The translations under genes and the position numbers were made by a program. DNA of 64,000 nt from the NCBI GenBank assembly GCA_041650295.1, contig JBAZLM010000003.1, positions 66,933 to 130,932 on the forward strand, read 5' to 3'. The notes below the pieces were generated by a model, which was not told where the DNA came from, made no database searches, and saw only the letters and a program-made list of their open reading frames with translations. Positions 20,177-49,888 of the stretch are shown piece by piece; position 1 is the stretch's first letter; the number at the start of each line of letters is the position of its first letter. Source of the DNA: Candidatus Omnitrophota bacterium (lineage in GTDB: Bacteria; Omnitrophota; Gorgyraeia; Gygaellales; Profunditerraquicolaceae).

Positions 20177-20563
20177 TTGATGTATACTAAACTTATGCCT
20201 AAAAAGATCCTAATTATTGACGATGACTACAATATTGCCAAAAAAAGCAAAGAAGAGCTGCTAAAAGCCGGTTATACGGTAATAATTGCTTACGACGCTA
20301 AGAGTGGATTAGAAAAATTCAAAGCAGAAAAACCCGATTGTTTGCTTTTAGACTTAGTTTTACCAGATGATAGCGGATTTAAAGTAGCCCAAGAGATTAG
20401 AAACCTAATCGAATTTATCGATATTCCGATTATTGCTACTTCATTAAAACACGAAGATATTGATAAACATATCGCTGCCAAAAGCGGAATCACTGTTTAC
20501 GTAGAAAAACCCCTAGATTATCCCAGACTCCTCTTCCACATCAAAGACGTTCTAAATAAATAA
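20177..20563 (+). CDS. Single-domain response regulator (CheY-like receiver)
   Basis: KILIIDDD ... LLLDLVLPDDSG ... K. The phospho-acceptor Asp and the Lys are both present. Confidence 0.8.
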   Translation: MMYTKLMPKKILIIDDDYNIAKKSKEELLKAGYTVIIAYDAKSGLEKFKAEKPDCLLLDLVLPDDSGFKVAQEIRNLIEFIDIPIIATSLKHEDIDKHIAAKSGITVYVEKPLDYPRLLFHIKDVLNK

Positions 20564-20604
20564 TCCTGTTGCTTTTCAAGTGAGTGTCGATTTATAAGCT
20601 TTCT

Positions 20605-20781
20605 GGCTTTTGCTGAAGGCACATTAGAAGATTTTCGGCAACTGTGTACAAGCCTGTCCTCCGCAGGAGGAGAATTACGTCGAGTGAAGGCGGTGTCCAT
20701 CTAGCGTAAGGAAGAAAGCCGTAGCCAGACGTAAGCCGCAGCAGGCGGCGAAAATCTTCGTGCCGAAGCGAAAGCCGGAAA
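20605..20781 (+). ncRNA. GC-rich structured non-coding element, copy A (unknown family)
   Basis: No ORF. GC content is higher than the flanking DNA. It is about 85% identical to the reverse complement of 47099-47270. A long-range complementary pair gattttcg / cgaaaatc is present. An extra hairpin, tcctccgcaggagga, occurs only in this copy. Confidence 0.45.
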
Positions 20782-20813
20782 GCTTAGGCAGGACCCGCGT
20801 AGACGAAATAAAA

Positions 20814-23212
20814 TTATATAACGATATTAACGAGTTTCTGGGGGACGATGATAATTTTCTTCGGGGACTTTCCTTCAAACCAAGGAATTAATTTTTCATC
20901 TTGCTGAATCAACTCTTTAAGCTTTTCTTCAGAGATATTACGCTCAACAGAAATTTTACTACGCACTTTTCCATTAACTTGAATTACTAACTCTACAGTT
21001 TCTTCCACCAATAATGCCGGATCAAATTTTGGCCAACTAGCTTTAAAAATACTTTCCTTATTACCCAAAATTTCCCAAAGCTCCTCGGCAAAATGCGGCA
21101 CAATCGGACTCAGCATAATTACAAGAGTTGAAAATATCTGCTTATTGGCACCAGTTTGATAAATAACATTGGTTAACTCCATGAGACTAGCAATCGCGGT
21201 ATTAAATTTAAATTCGCTGTAATCCTGGCTGACTTTTTTTATTGCTTTATGCAAACTCTTTAAAGCTTGCGGATCTACTTGATCCTTTAAATTTTCCTGA
21301 ATTCTCCAAACCCGGTTTAAAAATTTAAACGACCCCTCTAACCCACGCTCATCCCACTCAAGTTCAGTCTCCGGAGGAGCCGCAAATAAAATAAACAAAC
21401 GCAGGGCATCCGCGCCGTAATTTTTAATCATTGAATCCGGATCAACGATATTGCCCTTAGACTTAGACATTACCTCGCCATCTTTTAAAACCATACCTTG
21501 AGTAAGCAATTTATTAAACGGCTCGCTAAAATCAATCAACTTTAAATCTTGGAAAAATTTCGTAAAGAATCTCGAGTACAACAAGTGCAAAATCGCATGC
21601 TCAATTCCACCAATATATTGATCAACCGTCATCCAATATTTAGCTTCTTGAACATCAAACGGTGCCTCATTAAATTTAGGCGAGCAAAATCTTAAAAAAT
21701 ACAGGAAGAATCAAAAAAAGTAGCCATCGTGTCAGTTTCTCGACGAGCTTTGCCCTTACATTTAGGACAATTAACTTCCACAAATGCTTTAACTTTATTT
21801 AACGGACTTCCCCCTTCCCCAGTAAAGGGTGCATCAGCAGGTAATTCAACCGGTAAATCTTGATAAGGGACTGGCACAATTCCACAAGTCGGACAATAAA
21901 TCATCGGAATCGGTGTACCCCAATAGCGTTGACGAGAGATTAACCAATCACGTAAGCGCCAATGGGTTTGAATTTTACCAATTTTTTTAGCCTCCATCCA
22001 TTGCGCAATTTTATTTTTAGCTTCTTGATTATTTAATCCATCAAACTCACCAGAATTTATCTGTAGGCCATCACCTTCATAAGCTTGAGTTAAATCTTGT
22101 GCAGATTTTAAAGTTCCCTCTTTAGGCGAGATAACCAAACGCAGCGGTAATTTATGCTCTTTAGCAAAAAGAAAATCACGTTGATCATGTGTGGGTACGG
22201 CCATAATGGCTCCGGTGCCATACTCCATCAACACATAATCAGCAATCCAAATCGGAACCTTTTCGTTATTTACCGGATTAATTGCAAAACTACCGGTAAA
22301 TACCCCTTCTTTCTTAACATCAGAAGCCGCACGTACAACTTTACTTTCCGCCGCCACTTTTTTAATAAAAGCTAGCGCTGCCTTTTCCTCAGGTCTACCT
22401 TTAATTAAATCTTTAACTAATGGATGCTCCGGAGCTAAAACAATATAGGTAGCCCCAAAGATTGTATCCACACGCGTAGTAAATACGGAGATTACCGTAT
22501 CACTATTTTCTAATTTAAAATAAATATCCACCCCGCTGCTTTTGCCAATCCAATTATTTTGCATGGCTAAAACTCGCGGTGGCCAATTGACTAATTTTTC
22601 TAAATCTTCTAATAATCGTTCCTTATATTCAGTGATTTTTAAATACCACTGCTCTAAATCTTTTTGCTCAACCTTAGTATGACAGCGCCAACACTCTCCA
22701 TCGATTACCTCTTCATTGGCCAAAGTGGTCTGACAGCTAGTACACCAATTTACCCCCGAAGCTTTACGATAAGCCAGGCCGCGTTCAAACATCTTTAAAA
22801 AAATCCACTGGTTCCATTTATAATAATCACTCTGACAGGTGGAGACTTCCCTTTCCCAATCATAAGAAAAACCCATTTTCTTTAATTCGGTTTCCATCTC
22901 TTTAATACATTTATGCGTCCAATCAGCAGGCTTAGTTTTATTTTTTATCGCCGCATTCTCCGCCGGCTGGCCAAAAGCATCAAAACCCATCGGATGCATT
23001 ACATTGTAACCTTCTAAAGTTTTAAAACGGCTAGCTACATCGCCAATCGTATAATTGCGCACATGACCCATGTGAATTTTTCCCGACGGATACGGAAACA
23101 TCTCTAGCAGATAATATTTTTTGCGCGCTAGATCAGCTTGCGCCCGAAAAGCAGAACTATCCTGCCAAATTTTCTGCCACTTATTTTCTATTGTTTTAGG
23201 ATCATATTGCAT
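20814..23212 (-). pseudogene. leuS: Leucyl-tRNA synthetase disrupted by a 1-bp frameshift near 21700
   Basis: Two adjacent ORFs, 21692-23212 and 20814-21632, match the LeuS N- and C-terminal halves. Shifting +1 at tcctg^tatttt restores [39 protein letters not shown]. Confidence 0.85.
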
Positions 23213-25816: not shown

Positions 25817-28800
25817 TTAAAGACTTCCTGATCGGTTGATTTTTTATCTTGTTGAAGATTAGGTTTAGCCAACGGCTTTTCTGCGCCTAAAGGAATCACT
25901 CCCATCCCACCCGGAGGAATAATCCCGCTACCATGAGGAAACATCAAACGATTGGTAATTTCAGGGCTTTGATTTGAGATAAAATTTTGCTTTGAATACG
26001 AAAGATTGGAAACATCCGCAATGACTGGCATTGTCACAGGCAAAATCGCCGGGTTCACAAAGACTGGAGTGACCCCCATAGGAATAATTAATGGTGCGCT
26101 AACCGGAATGGGCATGGCCATTGGCACAGCAGGGACTACCCCAGTAGAAATAAACACAGGAACAGAGATATTTAAAGGTGTTGGTAAATTACTAACATAT
26201 AAGACACTTTCGCCTTGCATAATGGTTAAAGATTGATTAATCGCCAATGATCCGGGTTGATAGGTGATGGCATAATTACTCAAACCTGTTCCCTCTGCAG
26301 CGCTAGCAACGATACTATAAGGTGATTGATTAACCCCGGCACTGGCGGCAGCACCAGAGCTAGTTAAAGTTACGCTAGAGATTAGATCACTATTAATTAA
26401 TCCGCTGGAAGTAAACTCTGTTCCCGTAAAATTTAAATTATCGCCAAAAGTTTTAGTAACATTATCGGCGGTAATGGTTAAAGGTTTAGTAGTAATGGTT
26501 AGATTAGCTCCAACAAAATTAATTGAATAGTTGCTACCTGCAGATAAAGTGCCTTGATTAATCGCATAAGGACCAGCAGTAACAGTTTCGCCAGCGGCAC
26601 GCGCTAATGCGCCAGTAAATGAAATCGCTTCACTAGGTGTATAAGTAAATATCGGATCCACTGCACCGTAAACTTTGGTTTGAGCATCTGCAATCACGGT
26701 TACCGATTTAGGAGCAATAGTAAAATTAGCCGAAACAAAAGTAATGTCATAATTAGTACCAGCAGTTAAAGTTCCTTGATTAATGGCGTAACTACCGACG
26801 TCAGTACCAGCAGCGCGGCTTAAAGCACCAGAATAAGTATCTAAACCAACTAAGGTATCCGCAGTATAAGTAAAGACTGGATCAGCCGCTCCATAAACTT
26901 TAGATTGTCCGGCATTAGCCGTAACAGTTACCGGCTTAGCACTGATGGTTAAGTTGGCCGGAACAAAAGTAATTGTATAATTGCTGCCCGCAGTTAAGGT
27001 TCCCTGACCAATAGCATAATCGCCAACATTCGTGCCAACAGCGCGAGTTAATGCGCCAGTGTAAACGTCCTCACCCACTAAAGCAGTAGCGGTATAAGTT
27101 AAAGTTGGATCGCTAGCACCATAGACTTTGGTTTGAGCGTTAGCGGTAACGGTCACGGGTTTAGTATTAACAGTTAAAGACCCATTCTCATAAACAATAT
27201 TATAGTTGCTTAATCCTGTTCCCACTGCATCGCTAGGAACAATGCTATAGCTATTTACATTTGCACCTGAAGCTGCACCGACGCTAGTTAAAGTAACACT
27301 GTTTAAAGTATCCGAACCGACTAATCCTACTGCTGTAAATTCAGTTCCGGCAAAAGTTAAGGTTGAGCCATAAATCTTACTAGCGCTATTAGCCGTAATC
27401 GTCAAAGTTGGCTTAATCGCGCTGGTAATTACATTAAAAACGCCTGTGCCGATTGTAAAATATACATCATTTTCATGCGTTGCTCCCGAGCCGGTAATTC
27501 CCCAGGTTCCGTTAACTTGACCAATTTCGCCTAAAGTAAGCATATCAATACTAATCTCTGCCCCATCAGCAATATTAACTTGCGCTCCTGAAGCAATCGA
27601 TAAATTACCAACCACTATTGTGTCGCTGTATATATTAAATACGCAATTACCGGTTAAAATTAAATTAGCATTATAAGTGGCTGGAAATACATCTTGCTCA
27701 GTAACACCAATATATTCAACATCGCCATTAAATGTGCCACCAATAATTACGCCATTGTTAACAATCTCCCCATTAAATATGCCGCCAAGAATATACATAT
27801 TATTAACAACCTCTGCATTAAATGTACCATCAAGAATTGCTCCGTTATTAATAATTGCGGCATTAAATGTACCACTGGCAAGCGGAGCAATGCTATTAAT
27901 TGTGCCATTATATGTTCCAGCGGCGATACCGTAATAATTATCAATATGGGCGCTAAAAGTACCCTCACCAATTAAAGCGAAATTTCCAAACTCTACCGTA
28001 TAATCCGGAACCGTTTCTTGCACCACCCCATTAACGCTCCAGTTACTTGGAACAGTCGGACTGGCAAACCAACCGGTAAATACCGGAACCAAATGTTTGT
28101 CCGATCCAACCGGCACCGGAGTTCCTAAAACAATTTGATAAAAGTTCCCTCCGGTAACCGTACCATTATTTGTCACTACACCACTAAATCCACCACCATT
28201 AATTGTACCGTTATTCAAAACCGTACCCGTAAATCCTCCATCATTAATCGTACCATTATTAATTACTGGTCTGGCAACATTAAAAATACCATTTTCCATC
28301 GAATATGAACCCAATGTTTCGATCCCCATCCATTCATTACCTGCGCCTATAGTTAATGTCTTCGTATTGCTAGGAACTAAACCCAGGCCACCGACCGACC
28401 CACTGACCCAAATAAAATCTCCTACATATGCACCATCGCTAACTTCTCCACCGTCATTAATAAATGTGCCCTGAAATATTAATACTATGCCCTCATCATC
28501 AGAAATGCTAACTGAGCCATAATTAGTGACTGTACCATTAAATGTTCCACCTAAAATGGAACCATTATTAGTCAATGTGCCAGCATTAGATGTTCCCTCA
28601 GATGGATAATTTATCTTACCTGCATCAGGAATAGTTAGTGTATCATCACTAACTGGCACTCCATTTCCACCGGAATAATTACCAACATTATTTAAATTAC
28701 CATCCTCTGCACCAGTCCAAGTATAATTATAAGGACCGAGTCCATCATTCTGCACGAAATCGCCATTAATAACTCCGGCCGAAATAATTCCACCAACCTG

Positions 28801-31800
28801 ATTAGTTACCGTTCCAGTAAAAGTGCCACCATTAATCGTGCCATAGTTATCCAGATCCGTAGCGGTGGATCCGCTCATAATCGTTCCGATATTGGCAGCT
28901 TCTCCGGTAGAAGGTAGTACCTCAATTGTGGCTCCGTTTATCGTCCAGTTAGCAGCCACATCTAAATCTCCGCCGTTAAATACCGGAACAGCAGATTTAT
29001 CTATTCCACCGCCAATATCCCCATCAACACTCTGGTAAAAATTTCCGCCGGCAATAGCGCCAGTATTAGTAACCACGCCAAAAAACACACCATCCTCAAT
29101 GTCAGCTATATTAATAACCGGACCGTCAAAAATTCCTCCGGAAATTGTACCAGCATTAATCAGCTGATCGCTGTCATAAGTTTCACCACCAAGTTCATAG
29201 CTACCACCCATAACCTGATTATTAAATGTACCGCCGGATATCATTCCCACATTAGCAATCAAACCATTAAATTCTCCTGAATAAATATAACCAGCATTAT
29301 AAATTAGACCGCTAATCTCTCCTCCATCAATAATATTATAGTTGAAAAAATATTCACCTGAATATGACCCACCAGTAATTATGCCGGAATTAGCAACTTC
29401 TGCCTCATCTATAGGTAATGCTGATAATGGCTCACCATTCACTGACCAATTAGCGGCGACATCTAAATCTCCACCATTAAACACCGGGACATCAGATTTA
29501 TTTGTTCCATCTCCAATGCCATATCCTCCAACAGTCCGATAAAAATTACCACCAGCGATACTACTATTATTAGTAACTACGCCAAAAAATTGACCATCCT
29601 GAATATAATAATTATTGATAACTGTATTATTGAATACGCCATATTGGATATAATAATCATTAGTAACTGCGGCATTAAATACACCGCCGGCTATAAGATA
29701 AGTATTAACCACTGCGGAATTAAATACACCGCCACCAATTGCGATATTATTGGTAACTACGCCATTAAATGTACCGCCAAAAATTAACCCAGTATTAGTC
29801 AGCGCTTGGGCAAATGTACCACCCCAAATGCCCATAAGATTTGTAACTACACCACTAAATGTTCCATCGCCGATCAAGCCAGAGTTGTTAATTATGCCAC
29901 CATATACGCCATTCATAATGGAGCCGTAATTATCAATGCGTACAGAAGTTTGGCCAGCAATAATTACACCGAAATTAGCAAATTCTATTTCCGGCAATAC
30001 CTCTGTTGTATACGAATGACCGTCCATAGTCCAGGACCAGGTATCTGGATTATTTAAATCTCCCTCTTCGGCTGTAAATACCGGAACAGCTGACTTATTA
30101 ATACCGCTCTGGATCCCATTTGCACCAATAACCGTTTGATAAAAATCACCGCCGGTAATTGTACCGTCATTAGTAACTACGCCTAAGAAACCACCACCAG
30201 TAATCGTACCGCTAGGATTATTCAATACCGTATTACTAAACCCACCGCCAGTAATCGTACCATTGTTAGTAACTGGAGCAGAGATTGCGAATTTATTGTT
30301 ACCTAATCCGCTCAAAGAAAATACAGCTCCATCCCAAGTAGCGCCTGAGGCAATAGTTAAAGAAGTAATACCTGCAATATCAATAATAAATTGCGATCCG
30401 CCTTCCCAAATAAAATCTCCAGTAAATGTGGCGCCATAAATATGTCCACTATGAGCAGTAAATTTACCTTTAAAAAATATACCTACCTCTAAATCGTCAG
30501 AAATATTACCATTATTAACAACTTCACCATTAAATATCCCACCGAAAATATTACCGTTATTAGTAGTTAACAAAGCATTGGATGTTCCTGATGATGGATA
30601 ATTTGCTTCATCCCCAAGCCAAGGAATAGTTAATGTATCAGTATTAGTTGGTACCACTTCAGCCACTAATCCACCGCAAGTATAATTGCCTGGTTTACCC
30701 AAATCCCCATCAATTGCCCCCGTCCAAACATAATCTAAATCCCAATTAGAGTTGTTAGTTCCTTTTAACGATAAAGTCATTGGCATAAGATAATTAGCCA
30801 CATTATTACCATCCTGAACGTATATATAGGTAAGATTTACTTTTGTCTGATCAAGAGCATTAACCATCCATTGGCTGCCAGCTTCTGTGGAAGATACACG
30901 GATTAAGTTGCCAGATGCTCCCTCTATTCTTAAGTTGTTCAGAATAGTCTGGGTTTTACCGGCTTCAAATTTGATGATTTTTCCAGGAGTGGTGCAAACT
31001 AAATTATAGAAGGTATTATTACCGCTGATAATGGAAACCTTGCTGGCATCAATAAAGCTTACGGTATAAGTAGCCGCATCAAAGGTTCCGGTCTGGTGAT
31101 TAAAATTACCTCTTAAAGCCAAATCCCGGGCTAAAGTTAAAGTACTGGTATAACCATTTATATTTAAATCATCAATCGTCCCCTGGAAAGCCGCATCCAC
31201 AATAGAATCTTTATTCGGGTTATTTCCAGTGACACCATCAAAGGTAACGATGTCATATTCGGTAGGAGTAGTTCCGGTATCCCAGTTATTTGCATCTGAC
31301 CAGTTATTGGTTGCGCCATTACCAGTCCAGAAAGGATCTAAATCGAGGTTGGTATTATTGCCCAAAGAGCTAGAATGAATGATCTTTAACGGAGGAGCAC
31401 GGATATTTAATAAGTTGCTGACTAAAGCATATTGAATATCGCTCTCTCCTTGTGCATTCAGTGACCATTGTTTTAAAGGATCAATAGAAGTTAAAGTTAA
31501 AAGATTACCGTAGCTTCCTTTTAAGTTTAAGTTATTTAAAATGGCTTGAGGATTTTCAGTGTCAAATCTAACGATTTTACCCGGTTCAGTAACGTTAAAA
31601 TTATAAAAGATATTGGCTCCTAAAACATTGGCATCTTGACTAGAAACTAAATTTACCGTAGAGGTACCAGCATTAAATAAGCCAGAATTGGCCCAATTTC
31701 GGCTAATACTATACTCAGTATTAGCCGCATTCAAAGTCACGCCCTTACCTATATATAAGGATCCGGCAGTTCTGACTTGAGAATTATCCTGTTGATTATA

Positions 31801-35428: not shown

Positions 35429-35501
35429 TGGAGCTGAGGAGGATCGAACTCCTGACCCTTTGCATGCCATGCAAATGCTCTCCCAGCTGAGCTACAGCCC
35501 C
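35429..35501 (-). tRNA. tRNA-Ala (GGC)
   Basis: Cloverleaf GGGGCTG / GCTCAGCTGGGAGAGC / anticodon loop ATGGCAT / GGGTCAGGAGTTCGATCCTCCT / CAGCTCC-A. The G3:U70 Ala identity pair is present. Confidence 0.8.
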
Positions 35502-35616: not shown

Positions 35617-35699
35617 GCCGGGATGGCGAAATGGCATACGCGGCAGCCTCAAAAGCTGCTGAGCGCAAGTTCATGTGGGTTCAACTCCCTCTCCCGGTA
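35617..35699 (+). tRNA. tRNA-Leu (CAA), type II with long variable arm
   Basis: Acceptor stem GCCGGGA/TCCCGGT. D-arm GCGAAATGGCATACGC. Anticodon stem-loop GCAGC-CTCAAAA-GCTGC. T-loop GGTTCAACTCC. One apparent mismatch remains in my T-stem parse. Confidence 0.55.
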
Positions 35700-38008: not shown

Positions 38009-39511
38009 CTACTTTCTTAATTGTTCTTTATCGATCTTACCCGTACGATTCTTAGGAAGGCTGGTACAAAATTCAAAATAATGCGGAATCTTAAAATTTG
38101 CTAAATTCTGTCTTAAAAAATAACGCAGATCTTCTTCGCTAAGCTGCTTTCCTTCTTTAATTACTAAAAATGCTTTGGGAACCTCTCCTCTTAATTTATC
38201 TGCCACCCCCACTACTGCGGCCTCAGCAATATCCGGATGTTTTTGCAAGCTAGCTTCAACTTCCGGCTCAAAGACAATCTCGCCACCCACCTTAATCATC
38301 TCTTTTTTTCTACCGACAATATAGAGATAGCCGTCCTGATCAAATTTACCTAAATCTCCGGTATGAAACCAACCACCCCGCAAGGTTTCTTTAGTTAATT
38401 TGGCATCTTTAAAATATCCGTCGGTAACCACCCAACTTTTTACCACAACCTCTCCTACCTCTCCGCAAGGTAACTCCTGGTCCGTGCCTGAAAATATTTT
38501 TACCTCTATCCAGGGAGCCGGTCGGCCCACGCTTTCAACGTTTTTTGAACCCATCGGTAAAACTACCGTCGGAGCATTGGTTTCGGTTAAGCCCCAACCA
38601 TTCAAAAGACTAGCCTTGGGACAAAACTGATGAAACCTGCGCAAAGCATCCGGAGAGTTAGATGCCCCAAAGGTAACAATCCAACGCAAACTAGATAAAT
38701 CAAAAGTTTCAAACTCTTTTAATTGTAAAAGCGCATAATACATCGAAGGCACAATCCAGAAAAAATTTATCTTATAATTCTGTACGTTCTTTAAAAATTC
38801 TAACGGGCTAAAACGCTCCATCAAGACAACTTTTAAACCAAAAGAGATCATATTCTGGATATAAATTAACCCTCCTAAATGCGAAAATGGTAAAGCACAA
38901 AGTGCAGTATCTTTGGCACTCAGATCAGAGTTCACAAAAAAAGCCATCGATTTAGGCGGAGCATCTAATTGCGCATAATTAATTAAAACTCCTTTGGGTT
39001 TACCCGTGGTACCAGAAGTATAAAAAATTATGGCATAATCTTTTTCATTAATTTTTACCTGCGGAGCCGAACTTGATCCTTCGGCCAAAAGTTTTTCATA
39101 ACTTAAACTCAAGCTATCCTCTGATTGACAGGAGATAATATTTTTTAATGAAGGTAGTCTGGCCTTAAGATTAGCAAATGAAATATTAGCTTTATGTTTA
39201 GTAATTAGTAACTTAGTTTCAGAATGATCTAGGCAGGAAACAATCTCTTCTTCGGTAAGCATAAAATCTAAAGGCACACTACAAGCCCCCACTGACCAGA
39301 TCGCTAAATAACTAATCACATACTCCGGCCAATTAGGCAAATAGATCGCTACTTTATCCTGCGGCTTAACTCCCAACTTAATTAAACTTTGCGCAAATGA
39401 AAATACTTTATCTTTTAATTGAGAAAAAGAGATCTCATCCTGACGAAAAATAATCGCCGGTTTATTGGCATACTCTTTGGCACAATTTTCTAAAACATTA
39501 ATTACTTTCAC
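38009..39511 (-). CDS. AMP-dependent synthetase / long-chain fatty-acid-CoA ligase family
   Basis: AMP-binding motif YTSGTTGKPKGV and the acyl-CoA synthetase C-terminal domain. GTG start. Confidence 0.8.
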   Translation of the reverse strand: MKVINVLENCAKEYANKPAIIFRQDEISFSQLKDKVFSFAQSLIKLGVKPQDKVAIYLPNWPEYVISYLAIWSVGACSVPLDFMLTEEEIVSCLDHSETKLLITKHKANISFANLKARLPSLKNIISCQSEDSLSLSYEKLLAEGSSSAPQVKINEKDYAIIFYTSGTTGKPKGVLINYAQLDAPPKSMAFFVNSDLSAKDTALCALPFSHLGGLIYIQNMISFGLKVVLMERFSPLEFLKNVQNYKINFFWIVPSMYYALLQLKEFETFDLSSLRWIVTFGASNSPDALRRFHQFCPKASLLNGWGLTETNAPTVVLPMGSKNVESVGRPAPWIEVKIFSGTDQELPCGEVGEVVVKSWVVTDGYFKDAKLTKETLRGGWFHTGDLGKFDQDGYLYIVGRKKEMIKVGGEIVFEPEVEASLQKHPDIAEAAVVGVADKLRGEVPKAFLVIKEGKQLSEEDLRYFLRQNLANFKIPHYFEFCTSLPKNRTGKIDKEQLRK

Positions 39512-39590
39512 CCCGCACCTTCTTCCCTATTTAATTTCTACCCCATCACTTCTTATTCTATCAATACAAAGAAGGTGTGGGGTTCATTTA
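39512..39590 (-). promoter_or_regulatory. Conserved hairpin leader (copy 1) pairing the Shine-Dalgarno sequence of the downstream GTG-start gene
   Basis: On the mRNA strand, ccccacaccttctt ... gggaagaaggtgcggg|GTG. Stem of 12-14 bp. A paralogous element lies at 48085-48157. Confidence 0.5.
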
Positions 39591-42067: not shown

Positions 42068-43000
42068 TTATACTTCTCCACTAAAAGTGCCTAAATAAAT
42101 ATGTTTAGTAATTAATGCATTCGGCGTAACATCAAAAGCCGGATAATAAGCTTTAACTTCTTTAGGCGCTAAACGCAACCCTTGATAAATTTTTAATTCA
42201 TCATCCGGCCGAATCTCAATCACAATCTCTTTACCAGTTTTTAATTTTGAAGCCGGCGGACAAATAACATAAAAAGGAATCTTAAAGTATTTAGCCACCA
42301 CCGCAATTTGATATGTTCCAATTTTATTGGCGATATCACCATTTAAAGTTAAATGATCTGCTCCCACGATAACCTTAGTTACTTTACCTAGCGATAATAA
42401 ATACGCCACCATATTATCAGTAATAATTGTAACCTCAAAACCGGCGCGCATGATTTCCCAAGCAGTAAGCCGCGAACCTTGCAAATAAGGACGAGTTTCC
42501 GTAACATAAAAACTGATTTTTTTGCCTTGCTCCTTAGCAAACTGTGCAATTAACGGCATTAAGCCACTCACATTGCAATGCGTCAAGATTACATCACCGT
42601 CTTTAAGTAAATCGGCAGTAGCTTTAGCCTGCTGGATTCTTTTACCTTTAAGCATCTCTAAAAATCCCAAGATACTTTTTTCTAACGGTGCTCCACTTTT
42701 AACCATCCCTAAAACCATATCGGTTAAGAATTTAAATGATAATGTGGGACGCGTGGCATTAATCGCCTGAGCAACTTTAAATAAATCTTTATTCTGGCGT
42801 TTACTTAAAATAAAAGTATACATTACTAAAAGCACTTGGCCCACGGCACGAGTTTTCATCTGTTTAATCGCGCCACAAGCCTCCAGATAATTCTTAGCCT
42901 TAAGATAAACTAATTTTTGGGGCAATTGAGTTTCATCAAGGATATAAATAACATTACCCTTAAGTTGAATCGGCCAAAATAATGGAGAAAATTTCATCAT
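42068..43000 (-). CDS. mtnA: S-methyl-5-thioribose-1-phosphate isomerase (eIF-2B alpha/beta/delta family)
   Basis: GADHLTLNGDIANKIGTYQIAVVAKYFKIPFYVICP matches the MtnA/e2B core. Confidence 0.75.
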   Translation of the reverse strand: MMKFSPLFWPIQLKGNVIYILDETQLPQKLVYLKAKNYLEACGAIKQMKTRAVGQVLLVMYTFILSKRQNKDLFKVAQAINATRPTLSFKFLTDMVLGMVKSGAPLEKSILGFLEMLKGKRIQQAKATADLLKDGDVILTHCNVSGLMPLIAQFAKEQGKKISFYVTETRPYLQGSRLTAWEIMRAGFEVTIITDNMVAYLLSLGKVTKVIVGADHLTLNGDIANKIGTYQIAVVAKYFKIPFYVICPPASKLKTGKEIVIEIRPDDELKIYQGLRLAPKEVKAYYPAFDVTPNALITKHIYLGTFSGEV

Positions 43001-43752
43001 AATTTATTTTTTTCTAATCTTTTAACTAATTCTAAGGCAATTTTAATTACATTACTTTCCGCCATATAATAAAGTGGATTCATAAAACCCATCTCGCCAG
43101 TCACCACATTATCACTAATCGCTAAAATTGAACCTGCCTTAATATTATAGGTCTGACAGATCGTAAGCAGCGTGGAAGAAACCATATCTACGGCTTGAGC
43201 TCCCTCTTTGCGCTTGGCTTCGACAATTTCACGTGTCTCACGCAATAAAGCATCAGTGGTCCAGGCTTTACCACGGTGCACGGTTAAGCCCATCTCTTTA
43301 GCAATATTAAAAAGAAGGTCCGATATATTTTTATCACTGCTCGTTTTAAAATCTTTATCCACATAATAAGGAGTTACCCCGTCGCCACGGATCACTTCAT
43401 CCACCACAAATAAATCACCCACTTTAATATTTTCATCAAGTGCTCCACCGCTACCTACGCGAATAATATTTTGAATTCCTGCATTACACATTACCTCAGT
43501 AGTAATGGAAGTATCTGTAGAAAATCTTCCACCATTAATTCCAGTAACTTTGATTCCTTCGTAAGTTCCCGTGTACATGGTGTATTCCATAAATGAAAAA
43601 TTGCGCACCGGATTTTCAATTTTTTTCATTAATACATCCAAGCGGTCACGCGGTCCGGGAACAATCGCATACTTACCTACGTCCTGTGGTCTAAGCTGCA
43701 CCATATCAGTTAGATCTTTTCCGGTTAAATGAACATTCTTTTGCATCTGCAT
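42997..43752 (-). CDS. Nucleoside phosphorylase family 1 (PNP/MTA phosphorylase-like)
   Basis: PNP_UDP_1 fold (VGSGGALDENIKVGDLFVVDE ...). Its position next to mtnA/mtnB suggests an MTA phosphorylase role. Confidence 0.6.
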   Translation of the reverse strand: MQMQKNVHLTGKDLTDMVQLRPQDVGKYAIVPGPRDRLDVLMKKIENPVRNFSFMEYTMYTGTYEGIKVTGINGGRFSTDTSITTEVMCNAGIQNIIRVGSGGALDENIKVGDLFVVDEVIRGDGVTPYYVDKDFKTSSDKNISDLLFNIAKEMGLTVHRGKAWTTDALLRETREIVEAKRKEGAQAVDMVSSTLLTICQTYNIKAGSILAISDNVVTGEMGFMNPLYYMAESNVIKIALELVKRLEKNKL

Positions 43753-43771
43753 TTAATTTCTCCTCCTAGTA

Positions 43772-44101
43772 TTAAGCCCGATACATAATTACATTTGCTT
43801 TTTCTAAAGTAATTAATCCTTCCTTAACCATAGTATCCAGCTGTGGAATAAACTGATTAATCTTCTCTTCACTATCCACAATCTCCACAATTATCGGCAA
43901 ATCTTCCGAAAGTCGTAATAAATTGGCAGTGTGCATATGACTTTTGCAGCCAAATCCCATAAATCCTTTAATGGCAGTGGCTCCGGCTAACCCGTTTTTC
44001 TTAGCCAGAAAAACAATCTCTTCATAAAGCGGTTTACCATTCCACTTGTCTGCTTCACCAATAAAAACTCTTAAAAGTTTACCATCGGCTGGAATTTTCA
44101 T
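43772..44101 (-). CDS. DUF190 (PII-like) protein, CrcB-associated
   Basis: 109 aa. COG1993-like sequence, translationally coupled to crcB. Confidence 0.6.
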   Translation of the reverse strand: MKIPADGKLLRVFIGEADKWNGKPLYEEIVFLAKKNGLAGATAIKGFMGFGCKSHMHTANLLRLSEDLPIIVEIVDSEEKINQFIPQLDTMVKEGLITLEKANVIMYRA

Positions 44102-44472
44102 ATTATCTCTCCAATTAAACTACCAATTCTAAATAATATAAACCCCAAAATTACACTAGCAAAAATATTTGTAAAAGCACGTAAAGCCTGTCCATTTCTC
44201 ACTAAACTATCGGTTTCAAAAATCAATGTTGAAAATGTGGTAAATGCCCCACAAAAACCAATCATCAATAATATACGCAAATCAGGTCCAAGCATAAATT
44301 TCTTTTCTGAAATGGTAGCTAAAATTCCTAAAATAAAACAACCACTAATATTGACAATCAACGTACCATAAGGAAAACTTGCACCCATAAATTTATAAAC
44401 CAGTCCACCTAATAAATATCTAGCTACTGTCCCCGCCGCTCCACCAATAATTAAATTTAAAAATTTTATCAT
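44098..44472 (-). CDS. crcB: Fluoride ion channel CrcB (Fluc)
   Basis: 124 aa, four TM helices. GFCGAFTTFS signature. Confidence 0.85.
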   Translation of the reverse strand: MIKFLNLIIGGAAGTVARYLLGGLVYKFMGASFPYGTLIVNISGCFILGILATISEKKFMLGPDLRILLMIGFCGAFTTFSTLIFETDSLVRNGQALRAFTNIFASVILGFILFRIGSLIGEII

Positions 44473-44474
44473 AT

Positions 44475-45404
44475 TTAAAAATCCAACATTCTAGCTAAAT
44501 TACCACCTAAAATATTCTTCTTATCCTCAGCGGATATCTCTAAATCATTCACGGCTTTAATGCCGCCGGTCACTTCTTTTTTTGCCGGATAATCCGAACC
44601 CCATAAAATATGCCGTGGCCCCATTAACTCAAGTGCCAGTAAAAAATTCGCTTTGGTCGTATCGCCACTAGTATCGACATAAATATTTTTAAAATAATCT
44701 GAAGGCGCACCCTGCAGGTCTTTAACAAAATTCAGCGTGCGCAACATCTGATAAGTAGTATCGAAACGTTGCTTAAGATAACAGATTGCTCCGCCAAAAT
44801 GCCCAAAAATAAATTTTACTTTGGGATACTGACGTAAAATATCCGACATTAAAAGCTTACCAATAGAAATTGTCGTATCAAAAACATATTCAATCGCCGG
44901 TGTAAGCAACGGATCCTTAACTCGTTCATAGCCAATCGGATTAACAATTTGCGCATGTACAAAGATCGGAATATTTTTAGCTTCGGCTTCCTTATAGATA
45001 GGCCAAAACATTTTATCATCTAAATAAATGCTATTATAACTTGAGGCCAAAGAAATTGCCTTAAACCCTAGTTCATTAGTGGCGCGCTTTAACTCCTCCA
45101 GCATATCGATAGAATTATCTACGGGCAAAACTGCCGCGCCAATAAATCTTTTGGGGTAAGCTTTTAAAATTTGAGCCACGTTATCATTATAAATGTGGGC
45201 AACTTGACTAATACTACCAATCTTTAAATGTGCATCTGAGGTAGGATAACTTAAAACCGCTTGATCAATTTGTGCCGCATCCATTACCGCTAGTTGACTT
45301 TGAATATCACCCCAACCCTTATGAAAAAAATGGGCATTGGTAATTATCTCATCTGGCAGCCAATGGCTATGTGCATCAATTAACATTAATAGTTTATCCC
45401 GCAA
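44475..45404 (-). CDS. Amidohydrolase-2 family protein (ACMSD-like metal-dependent hydrolase)
   Basis: N-terminal HSHWLP metal-binding motif. TIM-barrel amidohydrolase_2 pattern (FGHFGG, WGSDYP). Confidence 0.65.
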   Translation of the reverse strand: MRDKLLMLIDAHSHWLPDEIITNAHFFHKGWGDIQSQLAVMDAAQIDQAVLSYPTSDAHLKIGSISQVAHIYNDNVAQILKAYPKRFIGAAVLPVDNSIDMLEELKRATNELGFKAISLASSYNSIYLDDKMFWPIYKEAEAKNIPIFVHAQIVNPIGYERVKDPLLTPAIEYVFDTTISIGKLLMSDILRQYPKVKFIFGHFGGAICYLKQRFDTTYQMLRTLNFVKDLQGAPSDYFKNIYVDTSGDTTKANFLLALELMGPRHILWGSDYPAKKEVTGGIKAVNDLEISAEDKKNILGGNLARMLDF

Positions 45405-45414
45405 GATAAATAAA

Positions 45415-45834
45415 TCATTGGCGGGACTCCGTACTTTTTAGGATGCGCTCAATCATCTCTTTTTCATAAAGCGCTTTAATCTCTTCTAAACCTTTTTTTC
45501 CTAATTCTTTAGTAATTACTTTTTCAATCGCATCCAACTTTATCTCGGAGAAAATAAAATCCGGATTAATCTTTTTATCCTGATCTCTTAAATCCGAACA
45601 AGCCTTCTCTTTACTCTCGATATATCTTTGGAAATCATCAATACGTTTCTGAATAGCATCTTTTTCATGAGGAAGATAGGTTCCCAAAAGCTCACTCTCC
45701 ATCTCCTCTAGAATATCTTGATCAATATCGATTTGCGTAAACTTTCGTTCGAATTTATCAAAAGCTTCTTTGGCTATTTTATAGAGCCAAATAAAATAGC
45801 GTTTCTTTAAATTTTTAAGATCCTGATTATTCAT
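45415..45834 (-). CDS. Hypothetical protein
   Basis: 139-aa acidic, helical ORF in an operon with the downstream genes. No family recognised. Confidence 0.4.
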   Translation of the reverse strand: MNNQDLKNLKKRYFIWLYKIAKEAFDKFERKFTQIDIDQDILEEMESELLGTYLPHEKDAIQKRIDDFQRYIESKEKACSDLRDQDKKINPDFIFSEIKLDAIEKVITKELGKKGLEEIKALYEKEMIERILKSTESRQ

Positions 45835-45851
45835 CTTACCTCCTACTGTTT

Positions 45852-46631
45852 TTACTTTCCCGGATGCTGCTGCTTAAACGGAATTACCGGAGCAGTCCAA
45901 GGTGTCTGTTGATTGATTACAGAAATCTCCAAGGGACAAACGTTAGCCGGCACGGTTAAAGCAAAACGCACTGCATCCTCTATAGCCTGAGTTCCCATTA
46001 AACGGGAAGTATCGCCGGTTATATCTTTTAATTTACCGGTTAAGTCCGTATCGGTAACTCCGGGCAAAATTGAGGTTACTTTGATTCCATGATCGCGTAA
46101 CTCCCAAAATAAACCTTTAGAGAATGCCCGCAAGCCAACTTTAAGCGAACTGTAAACAATAAAATTTCTGGGAACTGGATCGACTAGAGTAGAACCAGAA
46201 ACAATATTAATAATTGCCCCATACTTTTGTTTCATCATATCATTAATCACTAAACGAATTAAGCGCACATAACCTAAATAATTGGTATAAGCTAATTTCT
46301 CAAAATCCTCAATCGGTTGTTCATTGAAGGGAAACTGTGAAGAGACACCCGCGCAATTAATTAAAATATCTACTTTGCCAAATTTCGCTTTGGCTTTATT
46401 TACTAAATTCTCTAAATCCTCTAATTTAGTAACGTCACAACCCACCGGTAAAACCTCAACTTTATATTGTTTGGCTAGTTCAGCAGCAGTTTCTTTTAAC
46501 GGACCTTCTCCTCTAGCAGCCACCACCAAATTAACTCCAAGGCTAGCTGCGGTTGCGGCCATGGCTTTACCAATACCTCGACTGGCTCCCGTAACAATCG
46601 CTACTTTTCCTTTTAAGTCGGTACTCATCAA
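45852..46631 (-). CDS. SDR family oxidoreductase (3-oxoacyl-ACP/ketoreductase-like)
   Basis: TGASRGIG cofactor motif. YSSLK catalytic dyad region. Confidence 0.8.
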   Translation of the reverse strand: MMSTDLKGKVAIVTGASRGIGKAMAATAASLGVNLVVAARGEGPLKETAAELAKQYKVEVLPVGCDVTKLEDLENLVNKAKAKFGKVDILINCAGVSSQFPFNEQPIEDFEKLAYTNYLGYVRLIRLVINDMMKQKYGAIINIVSGSTLVDPVPRNFIVYSSLKVGLRAFSKGLFWELRDHGIKVTSILPGVTDTDLTGKLKDITGDTSRLMGTQAIEDAVRFALTVPANVCPLEISVINQQTPWTAPVIPFKQQHPGK

Positions 46632-46637
46632 TGCCTC

Positions 46638-47075
46638 CTATTTTACTTCAGACTCAATAACTTTTTTAAAAATTAATAAATTATCTTTAGAATGTTTATT
46701 AATAAATCCTTCGACCTGCTCATCATTAAACTTAGCCTTGGCATCCATTTTAAAATGCTGAATCCAAGTTAACTCTATCCCTTCAGGTTTTTGTGTATAA
46801 AGCCAGATAATCTTCATAAATTCGAAAGGAAATTTAGGATCATGACGCTCTGAATAAGTAAAAAAGTTTTCTTTATATAATAATCTCCAAGAGATCCAGG
46901 ATTTATCCTCATCATCAGTAAGCCGAAAAGTTATTTTGTTAGCTTCCTTCTTGACGATCTCGGCTTTTTTATATTCTGCACCAAATAACTGCGTCCAGCG
47001 CGGGATATCATTAGAAATTTTAAAAACTAAATCGTAAGGCGCATTAATCACCACTGAATTACAAGTATGTCCCAT
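46638..47075 (-). CDS. SRPBCC (Bet v1-like) polyketide cyclase/dehydrase-family protein
   Basis: 145 aa with an SRPBCC-like composition. GGGAGGG Shine-Dalgarno sequence. Sits in a KS/CLF/ACP cluster. Confidence 0.55.
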   Translation of the reverse strand: MGHTCNSVVINAPYDLVFKISNDIPRWTQLFGAEYKKAEIVKKEANKITFRLTDDEDKSWISWRLLYKENFFTYSERHDPKFPFEFMKIIWLYTQKPEGIELTWIQHFKMDAKAKFNDEQVEGFINKHSKDNLLIFKKVIESEVK

Positions 47076-47098
47076 ACTACCCTCCCAATGTTAGATTT

Positions 47099-47270
47099 CC
47101 GTCTTTTACTTCCGGCGCTCAAAGATTTTCGCCGTGTGCTGCGGCTTACGTCTCGTTACGGCTTTCTTCCTTACGCTAGATGGACACCGCCTTCACTCGA
47201 CGTAATTCCTTGCACACTATCAAAAAATTAGAAAGCCGAAAACTTTGAACGCGCCTCCAGCAAAAGCCGG
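47099..47270 (-). ncRNA. GC-rich structured non-coding element, copy B (5' leader of the 46638-47075 operon)
   Basis: The reverse complement is about 85% identical to 20605-20781. No ORF. It lies between two minus-strand genes, immediately upstream of the Shine-Dalgarno sequence of the SRPBCC gene. Confidence 0.45.
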
Positions 47271-47283
47271 AAATTTATAATAT

Positions 47284-48084
47284 TTAGTCTAAAAGAGCAA
47301 CCACTCTCGCCCAAGCTGCGCCAGTATTCTTTATGCGAATCGGAAAACAACTCACTTTAAATCCAAAATCCGGCAATTTCTCTAAATTAGCTAAACGCTC
47401 AATATGAATAAATTCTTTTTTACGACCGTAAAAATGCGCCGGATAAAACTTAGAGGCATCTTTTGTCTCTAAAAATTCTTTAAGCATAAAGCGATACGGT
47501 CGGTCAATGCCCATCGTATCTACACCAAAGATCTTTATACCTTTATTTAAAAGATACTCAATTGCGGACGGATCAACTCCCGGGTAATCGGAAAAATATT
47601 TAGGGCCCCCATAAAGCTTATCAGCACCAGTATGTAAAAATACAATATCCAAAGGCTTAAGTTGATAATTAATCTTCTTTAAAGCCTCCTCGATATCTGA
47701 GGACTTAATCACTTCATTGGGTTTCTTATGACGAAAATCTAACTTTACACCATTTTGATAACAATATTCTAAGGGAATCTCGTCGGCGGTTTTAGCCGCG
47801 CGGCCCTCTGATTGAGAACCATAATGAAAGGAATAATCTAAATGCGTGCCAATATGCACCGGCGCATGCACAATCTCTAACGACAGAAATTCCTCATCAG
47901 GCAAATCAGTTGGCTTAATAATGCGCTGACCCAGTAAATGCTTAACCTTGCCTAATAAAGTTTTACCCATAATCACGCGGTTAAATTTCTTAACCCCAGC
48001 TTTATGGGTAATTCTTTCGATATCTACTTTGTGTACTTCAAAAGCCTTTTCATCAATCGGCAGGCTTAAGTCAATTATTCTCAC
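47284..48084 (-). CDS. Cyclase family protein (PF04199; kynurenine-formamidase-like)
   Basis: HAPVHIGTHLDYSFHY metal-binding motif. GTG start preceded by the conserved hairpin leader. Confidence 0.7.
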   Translation of the reverse strand: MRIIDLSLPIDEKAFEVHKVDIERITHKAGVKKFNRVIMGKTLLGKVKHLLGQRIIKPTDLPDEEFLSLEIVHAPVHIGTHLDYSFHYGSQSEGRAAKTADEIPLEYCYQNGVKLDFRHKKPNEVIKSSDIEEALKKINYQLKPLDIVFLHTGADKLYGGPKYFSDYPGVDPSAIEYLLNKGIKIFGVDTMGIDRPYRFMLKEFLETKDASKFYPAHFYGRKKEFIHIERLANLEKLPDFGFKVSCFPIRIKNTGAAWARVVALLD

Positions 48085-48157
48085 CCCGCACCTTCTTTCC
48101 TATTTATCTTTACTCCCCCACTTTCTAATATTAAATTTTTAGAAGGTGCGGGACTCA
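48085..48157 (-). promoter_or_regulatory. Conserved hairpin leader (copy 2) pairing the Shine-Dalgarno sequence of the downstream GTG-start gene
   Basis: On the mRNA strand, cccgcaccttct ... ggaaagaaggtgcgggGTGAGA. It shares stem and loop blocks with 39512-39590. Confidence 0.5.
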
Positions 48158-48391
48158 TTAGGCAATTTTTGATTGAATATTGTTAACGATATCATTAATT
48201 GTCGAATTCTTAGTAATCTCTTTAGGGCTTAACTTTACTCCAAATGATTTTTCTAAAGCAATCACCGACTCCACCATCTCAGTAGAATCCACACCAATGC
48301 TATTAATCAAAGTGACATCATCTTTTAACTCTTCAATCTTTACTTTCAGCAAATTACTTAAAACTTCTTTTATTTTTATTTTAATATCCAT
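48158..48391 (-). CDS. Acyl carrier protein
   Basis: 77 aa. Phosphopantetheine attachment site IGVDSTEMVE on an ACP fold. Confidence 0.8.
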   Translation of the reverse strand: MDIKIKIKEVLSNLLKVKIEELKDDVTLINSIGVDSTEMVESVIALEKSFGVKLSPKEITKNSTINDIVNNIQSKIA

Positions 48392-48408
48392 CCACGCCTC
48401 CTATTTAC

Positions 48409-49869
48409 CTATATTTGCACTTCACCTTTTGTAGCTGCTGCTTCCCACTTACCTACTCCATCCATCACATCCTTAAAACAAAGTTTAGCCAACGGATCAA
48501 AATCACTTTCCATGATACGATTAATTCTTCCAGGTTTTGAGAAAAATTCTCGCATACACCAAGAGCCTAGTCGACCCAGATCTTCAGTAGTTAAATGATC
48601 TGTAGGAATGACTGGATGCAGAAAATCCCACTGGCTAAAATCTACTTTTTTCGGATCAATCCAATTTTTCTTTAAAGCAATTCTCCACATCGGTGAATTC
48701 GGAGCAGGAGTAACATACCCTACCCAAAGAATATCTGGATCAACCATATCAGTAAACTCAAAACGCTGTTTTATAATCTCTTCAGTATCATAATCAAAAC
48801 CCATCATGATGTCGGCGACAATAGCAATATCTTGTTTACGTAAGATCGCAATCGTCTTTTTAATCTGTTCGATAGTAGTACCTTTGGCGATTCTTTTTAG
48901 TTCTAATTGTGTAGTCACCTCAATGCCGAAAACCCCCATAAACAAACCCGCCTCTTTCATTAAAGGTAAAATAGATTCGCAATTGACCCAATCCACGGCG
49001 CGGCCCAAAGCCACCCATTTAGTTTCAATTTTCTTAGCTAACTTTAATTCACAGAATTTTTTAATGCGAGCTGGGTCAACAATAAAATTGTCGTCCTGGA
49101 TCACCACCACTTTAACTCCATATTTATTTTGTAAAAGCTCTAATTCTTCGATCACTCTTTCCGGACTTTTGGCACGCCATTTTAAGAAATCTGAAGGATG
49201 GCGTGGATCAAACTGATCCCATTCATAACAAAAAGTACAAGCCGAAGGACAACCGCGAGAGGTAACCATATCCACAAACGGCTTCCAATAAGTATGCCCA
49301 GAATATTTATCCATCGGAAATAAATCATACGCCGGTAATGGCAGTTTATCTAAATCTGTCATCAATGGTTTATGTGGGCCCATAACAATTTCACCATTAA
49401 TCCGAGAAGTTACTCCTGCGACATCCTTAAATGATTTGTTTTTATCAATCGCTTCAATTAAATCACCAAATGATTCTTCCTCACCCATGACAATAAAATC
49501 AACTTCGGGAATCTCTTCTAATGTGGGTACAGGCATCGCTGAATACCACAAACCACCTAAAATTATTTTCACCTTTGGTAATACTTTTTTAATCCCAATG
49601 GCGGCATCTTTAAAATGGCGTAATACTCCGTATCCACCGTAACCGTGTAATTGCTCGCCCATCACCACGATATCAGGATTAATCGCTTTGACCTTAGTAA
49701 TTAAATCTTGCATCGGGATCTGATCGGCTTTCGCGTCAATCACAGCCACATCTTTGTATCCTTTTTCCCGAATGTAAGCAGCCCAATGCGCATACAATTG
49801 ATTGGGTGAACGATGAATTCCGTGTGTTGCCCAAGCACCTACTTTTGGCATAACAAATAAAATTTTCAT
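48409..49869 (-). CDS. B12-binding domain-containing radical SAM protein
   Basis: N-terminal cobalamin-binding Rossmann-like domain. CPSACTFCYEW radical SAM cluster motif. Confidence 0.8.
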   Translation of the reverse strand: MKILFVMPKVGAWATHGIHRSPNQLYAHWAAYIREKGYKDVAVIDAKADQIPMQDLITKVKAINPDIVVMGEQLHGYGGYGVLRHFKDAAIGIKKVLPKVKIILGGLWYSAMPVPTLEEIPEVDFIVMGEEESFGDLIEAIDKNKSFKDVAGVTSRINGEIVMGPHKPLMTDLDKLPLPAYDLFPMDKYSGHTYWKPFVDMVTSRGCPSACTFCYEWDQFDPRHPSDFLKWRAKSPERVIEELELLQNKYGVKVVVIQDDNFIVDPARIKKFCELKLAKKIETKWVALGRAVDWVNCESILPLMKEAGLFMGVFGIEVTTQLELKRIAKGTTIEQIKKTIAILRKQDIAIVADIMMGFDYDTEEIIKQRFEFTDMVDPDILWVGYVTPAPNSPMWRIALKKNWIDPKKVDFSQWDFLHPVIPTDHLTTEDLGRLGSWCMREFFSKPGRINRIMESDFDPLAKLCFKDVMDGVGKWEAAATKGEVQI

Positions 49870-49888
49870 GACTCCTCCATAATAATGA

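Follow-up and report, generated by a model that had tools for sequence, protein, structure and literature searches.

Two GC-rich segments that face each other in inverted orientation raise the question of whether this part of a Candidatus Omnitrophota genome carries a structured regulatory RNA, a dispersed repeat, or a repeat whose structure is itself maintained. The DNA analysed is a stretch of 64,000 nt, referred to as the window throughout. The sequence-only reading of the window had described the two segments as inverted copies of one element, here termed E, and this was confirmed, both copies being slightly wider than first given (Table 1). A repeat search of the window returned inverted arms at 20672-20763 and 47117-47208 (92 nt, 93% complementary), and the core 40-mer occurs exactly twice in the window against 0 expected from 100 shuffles. 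In pairwise alignment copies A and B are approximately 85% identical overall and share a 52-nt block, GAATTACGTCGAGTGAAGGCGGTGTCCATCTAGCGTAAGGAAGAAAGCCGTA, that is identical in both. The GC content is 0.50-0.54 across copy A vs 0.33-0.37 in its flanks, and both copies are GC-rich against a host genome of approximately 35% GC. Other GC-rich intergenic islands in the window (at 52.4, 54.2 and 56.5 kb) were set aside as unrelated to E and probably coding.

Table 1. Positions of element E, its helices and adjoining modules in the window (helices of copy A placed by the family alignment).
Feature	Position	Strand	Length	Remarks
E copy A	20595-20786	+	192 nt	nhmmer 160.7 bits
E copy B	47092-47277	-	186 nt	nhmmer 155.8 bits
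Copy A P1a/b	20595-20613 with 20768-20786	+		family alignment
Copy A P1c	20618-20622 with 20760-20764	+		family alignment
Copy A P1d	20627-20637 with 20749-20759	+		family alignment
Copy A re-formed P2	20652-20657 with 20741-20746	+		family alignment
Copy A P3	20675-20681 with 20728-20734	+		family alignment
Copy A P4	20682-20691 with 20718-20727	+		family alignment
Small hairpin CCUCC-GCA-GGAGG	20658-20670	+		insert at P2/P3 junction, copy A only
AT-rich spacer of larger unit (U-spacer-E)	20558-20594	+		starts at response-regulator stop codon
T(-) remnant GGCAGGACCCGCGTA	20787-20801	-		exact minus-strand match; reverse complement of 5' terminal repeat (T)ACGCGGGTCCTGCC

Neither copy has a conserved open reading frame, in line with the sequence-only reading: indels separate the copies, and stop codons interrupt the sense frames. 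The "proteins" of antisense frames found no match in a set of 5.8 billion proteins. A scan of the window with Rfam 15 gave no match to E at the gathering score, where only tRNAs reached threshold; the sub-threshold matches were fragments with best E-values of 0.19-5, with nothing meaningful at E≤10. The same scan of loci that carry E together with an upstream module U (described below) assigned no family to E, in agreement with the earlier failure to place it in any known non-coding RNA or riboswitch consensus. Resemblances to SRP and 6S RNA were dropped because no Rfam match appeared even at E≤10. The tRNA matches, the only ones in the window, correspond to two divergently oriented genes at 35429-35501 (-) and 35617-35699 (+), which scored 61.1 and 51.6 bits.

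The wider distribution of E was traced from a diverged homologue in locus L004, syntenic with copy A, that surfaced through a tblastn artefact. A search pattern built to fit three copies (A, B and that in L004) gave 97 matches in metagenome contigs, approximately 53 of which are true homologues, and a 19-mer scan of GTDB species genomes gave 78 matches, of which approximately 45 are true. The GTDB matches come almost entirely from Candidatus Omnitrophota MAGs, with a few in bins labelled Planctomycetales or Verrucomicrobia (PVC). An nhmmer census over 1.3 Mb of fetched DNA raised the count to approximately 100 copies, among them second copies without the pattern. Per MAG the number runs from 2 to at least 10 (nzgw297, at least 9; CAYIFW01, at least 10). 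Many matches fall at the ends of contigs or abut 100-N scaffold gaps, as a repeat would be expected to do; the N-runs adjoining E in L165 and L109 are such gaps and not masks. Neither the 26-mer core nor the 19-mer matched viral contigs, and blastn of E against plasmids and phages gave no match. A pattern of loops only (GAGTGAAN10ATCTAGCGTAANNNAGAAA) found nothing in genomes or metagenomes, and the apical loop of the window type is lineage-specific. Copies measure approximately 175-195 nt across the family, and the internal sequence of E is invariant among genomes with a protein identity of only 70-80%. Neither Rfam 15 nor full-text literature searches on RNAs and repeats of Omnitrophota returned a structured RNA or a repeat family from the phylum. 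E is a large, undescribed, phylum-restricted intergenic repeat family of Candidatus Omnitrophota.

Copy A follows a response-regulator gene (20177-20563, +), as the sequence-only reading had it, and lies between this gene and the convergent beta part of leuS (20814-21632, -). The window has leuS as two separate ORFs with 59 nt between them: the alpha ORF (21692-23212, -; 506 aa) holds the catalytic N part and the editing domain, and the beta ORF (272 aa) holds the C part and the anticodon-binding domain. Many Omnitrophota homologues of LeuRS-beta are 272-304 aa long, and unsplit LeuRS of approximately 798 aa occurs in L101, L121 and L132. Heterodimeric LeuRS is otherwise known from Aquifex. 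The homologues of LeuRS-beta and of SRPBCC indicate a Candidatus Omnitrophota host for the window. Further into the window, at 26300-30600, lie dense degenerate repeats with a 45-nt periodicity, probably a very large gene for a repeat-containing surface protein.

Copy B sits inside a minus-strand operon (42997-51118) that encodes KS, a B12-binding radical SAM protein, ACP, a PF04199 cyclase, then after copy B a polyketide-cyclase-like SRPBCC protein, SDR, a 139-aa protein, amidohydrolase, CrcB, DUF190 and PNP. The operon is strongly conserved across Omnitrophota, with SRPBCC 80-91% identical in more than 800 proteins and the gene order kept in L009 and L010. The window also has a 34-nt direct repeat with 91% identity (39500-39533 and 48073-48106), whose second copy overlaps the RBS of the minus-strand cyclase gene and its GTG start codon; the repeat may be a translation-start region shared by two genes. 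Copy B had been taken for the 5' leader of an SRPBCC-SDR operon. It occupies the spacer from the cyclase stop codon (47284-47286) to the SRPBCC RBS and ATG (47073-47075); it starts 7 nt past the stop codon, its other end lies 6 nt from the Shine-Dalgarno sequence and 15 nt from the ATG, and it is therefore intercistronic and not an operon leader.

The idea that E acts as a cis-regulatory leader or riboswitch for the SRPBCC-SDR genes draws on this short distance to the SRPBCC start, which sense copies in L030 and L086/L029 share. However, the distribution of E largely refutes it. The same junction between cyclase and SRPBCC genes holds E in sense orientation in the window, L030 and L086, holds it inverted in L039 and L123, and is empty in L005, L009, L010 and L173. 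In L173 the spacer is only 16 nt, although L173 carries E elsewhere, and across the close relatives (L005-L011, L173) the spacer measures 16-62 nt with at most a small unrelated hairpin. Moreover, copy A and most members of the family are not upstream of any comparable gene, E shows no expression platform, and no Rfam riboswitch matches it. A constant position and orientation before a coherent set of genes is not what the family displays, and a leader function is very improbable. The earlier view of a locus-specific leader or riboswitch-like RNA gives way to that of a dispersed family beside unrelated genes, in either orientation, with turnover at the very site of copy B.

Unrelated housekeeping genes adjoin E (among them genes for cation efflux, an oxidoreductase, an acyltransferase, thioredoxin, GDT1, LpxK and ArgC), and its orientation relative to them is unbiased (+E+ 14, -E- 18, -E+ 8, +E- 5). 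Three junctions are used repeatedly, namely response regulator|leuS, cyclase|SRPBCC and STAS-PilZ|GDT1-LpxK, where E or the unit of U and E is found in one or the other orientation and in different subtypes, or is missing. In relatives, the content of the spacer between the response-regulator gene and leuS varies: it is E, pointing either way, or mobile DNA of another kind, namely a different palindrome (L002), a RAYT-like Y1 gene flanked by repeats of its own (L003) or IS fragments (L004). Similarity between copies does not track the site. Copies that share a site are 60-85% identical. The nearest relatives of copy A are those in L013, L092 and L073 (88-90%), whereas its same-site counterparts reach 69-77%, and copy B is nearest to that in L106 (92%). 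Copies within one MAG share genome-specific variants and differ from each other by 8-25%, so no burst has occurred recently. Insertion at such sites could be mimicked by an ancient presence with later inversion or precise loss.

The structure of E was derived from alignments of 35 and 57 distinct full-length copies, and one rod-like fold is supported across the 57. From the outside inwards it comprises P1a/b, an internal loop UGGA/(G)GAA, P1c (GGCAC/GUGCC), a 4-5-nt bulge A(A)UUA and P1d (GAAGAUUUUCG/CGAAAAUCUUC). Inward of P1d follow a junction with or without an extra hairpin, P2 (GUGUGC/GCACAC), a 2-bp P2', P3 (UUACGUC/GACGUAA) and P4, and the tip of the rod is a variable apical domain of at least five sequence types. 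In the predicted folds of the two window copies (copy A, -92.7 kcal/mol, z -7.8 vs shuffles; copy B, -71.7 kcal/mol, z -5.5) a long closing stem surrounds an interior that is branched or irregular. Conservation peaks inside the element, in P1c/P1d and the junction, and the stem termini are least conserved. K-turn, hammerhead and sarcin-ricin readings of the internal loops were discarded as misfits to the consensus on inspection by eye. A CsrA sponge was likewise rejected: E holds six GGA motifs, but their enrichment is only about twofold and several lie in stems.

Across the two alignments, 92.7-93.2% of cells form standard pairs, and in 23-26 pairs both partners have changed (88-139 cells). 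Not one shuffle out of 500 equalled the real alignment on any pairing measure, and slid controls gave approximately 40% paired cells and 6-11 double-change pairs. The expectation of a structured element with covariation is therefore borne out by 57 homologues and up to 26 compensated pairs. The long-range helix gattttcg/cgaaaatc that had been suggested proved to be P1d (GATTTTCG/CGAAAATC), invariant or compensated in 57 of 57 family members; compensation reaches even this near-invariant helix in L154 (5842-6034, GAAAUUUUUCG/CGAAAAAUUUC), and P1c/P1d compensation is also seen in copy B and L106. Compensatory changes beyond controls show that a single strand folds, a strand that may be either RNA or DNA. 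E has an actively maintained, rod-like single-strand fold under selection.

The differences between the two window copies, which had been read as variable stems, do sit in stems and are compensated, for example in P1c (GGCAC/GUGCC vs GGCGC/GCGCC) and P2. The "gg versus ca" difference is part of P2, where GCCUGU/GCAGGC in copy A replaces GUGUGC/GCACAC, the new 5' strand GCCUGU being supplied by an insertion. The "gccag versus acgag" difference lies in the 3' strand of P4, and here copy A has lost one conserved A.G pair, which has become A.C; in these two respects copy A is slightly atypical. The small hairpin that had been noticed in one copy is indeed confined to copy A, and its insert position holds the palindrome CCTGCCTGCCGGCAGGCAGG in L114 and a variant of it in L004.

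These features bear on the suggestion that the copies are neutral, decaying remnants of an extinct repeat whose structure is unconstrained. Copy A, truncated in that it lacks the upstream module and deviant at one A.G pair and in P2, would suit such a history. However, neutral decay is contradicted by the covariation (93% paired cells and 26 compensated pairs vs approximately 40% paired in slid controls), by a 52-nt identical block in two copies that are 85% identical overall, and by the fact that even copy A re-forms P2 with a new 5' strand, so that we regard it as hardly credible. The sequence-only reading had named a MITE-like decaying repeat as the finding that would overturn a structured RNA: the repeat with inverted termini is present, but it is not decaying and it covaries.

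Conserved non-canonical pairs add to the picture. A tandem G.A/A.G in P4, adjoining P3, is kept in 54 and 53 of the 57 copies, and two further purine-purine pairs of P4 in 53 and 43. Furthermore, G.U outnumbers A.C on the drawn strand by about 2:1 (104:56 overall and 41:18 in well-aligned helices). The ratio is 24:10 in copies sense to their neighbours and 20:9 in antisense copies, and therefore the strand preference is the element's own and does not come from host read-through.

Such properties invite the explanation that the copies are independently expressed, trans-acting structured RNAs, for instance an RNP scaffold or guide that works with a protein encoded elsewhere. The protein would then bind the invariant basal rod as a handle, and specificity would come from the variable apical domain. 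Strong covariation, the tandem G.A/A.G with two further purine-purine pairs in 43-54 of 57 copies, an internal sequence that is invariant across genomes with proteins only 70-80% identical, at least five apical subtypes and a strand bias independent of host transcription are all consistent with this. However, many copies are wedged 1-20 nt from the genes on both sides, which leaves no room for a promoter and terminator of their own, and no conserved promoter-like or terminator-like sequence was found in the flanks of E or of the larger unit. Presence, absence and inversion at the same sites also count against it, as does the observation that no protein co-localises with E. On balance, independently expressed RNAs, the main alternative to the repeat reading favoured below, seem possible but unlikely.

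In most loci E is accompanied by U, a second GC-rich hairpin module that lies upstream, measures 46-205 nt, begins with (T)TAACGCGGGTCCTGTC and ends in ...CCCGCTA. Between U and E lies an AT-rich spacer of 0-50 nt, and the first 20-25 nt of U often recur, inverted, downstream of E. This T motif opens U in many loci and is found inverted after E in L018, L068, L078, L097, L098, L100 and L104. E is thus often one module of a mosaic unit, T(+)-U-spacer-E-T(-), with inverted repeats at the unit ends; the whole unit folds with a closing T/T helix at -167 kcal/mol (z -8.3). Neither U nor the whole unit matched Rfam in the loci scanned with U and E. In the window, copy A retains the spacer and the T(-) remnant and has no T(+)-U, and copy B is E alone, with no other module of the unit. 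Positions 813-1023 of L106 match window positions 20558-20786 at 80.6% (blastn), and in L106 the spacer comes after a complete T(+)-U.

Other cargo may stand in the place of E or behind it: a paralogue E2 (L073, L083, L092), a long variant (L074, L097, L052) or a module X (L009). E2 is a diverged paralogue with a shorter interior, placed downstream of E in those three loci; the long variant, also seen in L182 and L184, carries additional 5' structure of approximately 150 nt. The 3' strand GCACACGGCGAAAATCTT(C/A)CGTGC...GGAAAGC recurs in both paralogues, which sometimes stand in tandem with E. A 20-nt perfect palindrome, CCTGCCTGCCGGCAGGCAGG, is inserted in different modules of different genomes: at 3848-3870 in L009, in U of L097, L161 and L052, and in E of L114 (1884-2083) and L004. 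Copy A has a related insert, CCTGTCCTCCGCAGGAGGAG, at window positions 20654-20673, the same position within E. CCTGCCTGCCGGCAGGCAGG may be a still smaller nested palindromic insertion.

Taken together, E and U may also be thought of as a new class of element-borne functional RNA, in which a protein from another place in the Omnitrophota genome would bind the invariant, mismatch-studded basal rod and specificity would reside in the exchangeable apical domain, or in which the RNA is itself an intermediate or catalyst of spread. This would be analogous to omega or bridge RNAs, with the difference that E lies apart from any effector gene, and we hold it to be distinctly doubtful.

Several features link E to miniature mobile elements. 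It is small, has no ORF, ends in terminal inverted repeats (TAAGCTTTCCGG...CCGGAAAGCTTA) and is present in many dispersed copies with presence/absence polymorphism. TA, a possible target-site duplication, flanks both window copies and most family members; as TA is palindromic, it cannot be told from one extra U-A pair, and the empty sites are too diverged to align. No autonomous element with the termini of E was found: within 2.5 kb of the approximately 100 copies there is no transposase-like cluster, and clustering of the ORFs in these flanks returned only syntenic housekeeping clusters and no transposase, reverse transcriptase or nuclease. The copies are dispersed among housekeeping genes in both orientations, unlike the integron attC sites of a cassette array, and E does not coincide with tnpA/tnpB ends as an IS200/IS605 PATE or omega RNA would. 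An IS200-type tnpA stands beside E in L004 only, with its own CCCCGGGCTTTAGCCCGGGG hairpin; the IS200 link that this hinted at was abandoned as not general, with 1 of approximately 100 copies near a Y1 gene.

A more specific form of the repeat reading holds that E is a single-stranded DNA hairpin mobilised by an HUH/Y1 enzyme, either with a REPIN-like RAYT partner or as a PATE-like derivative of IS200/IS605. A long imperfect hairpin with conserved mismatches and compensatory changes would fit, as would tens of extragenic copies in both orientations with genome-specific variants and a strand bias intrinsic to the element. Y1_Tnp genes are present in these genomes, and one adjoins E (L004). However, it is the only such case in approximately 100 copies, E is two to three times longer than known REPINs, and no RAYT with E arms on its flanks was found in the 1.3 Mb of flanking DNA, where tblastn detected no Y1 genes apart from those of L003 and L004. 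The RAYT-like gene of L003 (1020-1780; Y1_Tnp, 196 aa) lies between inverted repeats of another kind, GGGGACGTCCTCCTAGGGGACACCC, unrelated to E. HUH/Y1 mobilisation accordingly appears improbable. A repeat similar to GGGGACGTCCTCCTAGGGGACACCC occurs downstream of E in L085, and another palindrome occupies the response regulator|leuS spacer of L002 (1212-1366); these are repeat families separate from E in the same genomes.

E is multi-copy and non-coding, with inverted termini and site turnover. The explanation that we favour, with a probability of roughly 0.5, is that it represents a new family of mosaic palindromic repeats of the MITE/ERIC/REPIN type (resembling ERIC, Correia, BOX and REPIN elements), non-autonomous and with a hairpin under selection. 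E would spread or turn over within genomes as a non-autonomous element, and a putative enzyme acting in trans would recognise the invariant internal part of its hairpin in single-stranded form. Because of this proposed single-strand recognition, base pairing, mismatches and strand bias would be kept whatever the direction of host transcription. Once inside a transcription unit, E would travel with the message as a passenger, a very stable stem-loop that would be likely to affect how neighbouring messages are processed, stabilised or terminated. On this reading copy B was inserted between two genes of a single operon; lying 15 nt before the SRPBCC ATG, it is probably an intercistronic processing or stability element. 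Copy A is a 5'-truncated unit between convergent genes and probably acts as a barrier or insulator between the response-regulator gene and leuS-beta.

Several observations count against a mosaic repeat of this type. The 1.3 Mb of flanking DNA contained no autonomous partner or mobilising gene. The divergence of 8-25% among copies of one genome and the possible mimicry of insertion by ancient presence, both noted above, belong here, as does the ambiguity of the flanking TA. The peak of conservation is internal, unlike in ordinary MITEs with their conserved termini. Finally, conserved purine-purine mismatches, a 2:1 excess of G.U over A.C and a variable apical domain are classic signs of functional RNA.

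Whatever its mode of spread, the family supplies an alignment of approximately 100 sequences with strong covariation from an uncultured and poorly annotated phylum. It explains GC-rich islands and contig breaks in Omnitrophota MAGs, and its positions show where the genome is plastic within operons that are conserved in other respects. Should the rod be read as RNA by a dedicated protein, E would form a new class of RNA; should the substrate be single-stranded DNA, replicators of the REPIN/ERIC type would extend to a new phylum with an unusually elaborate structure.

Among known systems, the ERIC/IRU elements of Enterobacteriaceae and Vibrio share much with E. Both are imperfect palindromes of 100-200 nt, strictly intergenic and in either orientation, with a sequence strikingly conserved between genera, a patchy presence at orthologous sites and internal-insertion variants. 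Neither is known to have a transposase. The two may further be likened as co-transcribed stem-loops able to alter mRNA stability, a predicted property in the case of E. However, E has no sequence similarity to ERIC/IRU, is longer and is hosted by Omnitrophota, and it differs in its non-palindromic structured core (P2-P5), its conserved G.A pairs, its several apical subtypes and its frequent nesting in T(+)-U-E-T(-).

Correia/NEMIS of Neisseria and RUP and BOX of Streptococcus pneumoniae are, like E, small, non-coding and multi-copy, with inverted termini and TA-type flanks, and the modular boxA-B-C of BOX may be compared with the T-U-E-T arrangement. All of them insert between operon genes, and their long hairpins are plausible RNase III substrates. 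In these elements, however, the termini are best conserved and a TA duplication is demonstrable, whereas the stem of E is least conserved at its termini, no duplication could be read from its flanks, and a parent IS did not turn up. REP/BIME and REPIN-RAYT systems resemble E as extragenic, hairpin-forming inverted doublets that undergo compensatory evolution, persist in a lineage as intragenomic sequence populations and form mosaics of several motif types. E differs in that no E-flanked RAYT was found, in being much longer and in having a spacer that is itself a conserved, covarying structure.

The omega RNAs of TnpB/IscB and the bridge RNAs of IS110 are alike with E in size (approximately 150-200 nt), in combining an invariant scaffold with variable parts and in residing in mobile DNA. 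However, they adjoin their own nuclease or recombinase gene in a fixed orientation, whereas E has no associated gene, and HEARO and related Rfam models did not match it. Set beside the other mosaic palindromic intergenic repeats of bacteria, E is unusual in its internal peak of conservation, its conserved non-canonical pairs, its exchangeable apical domains and its nesting in a unit bounded by inverted repeats.
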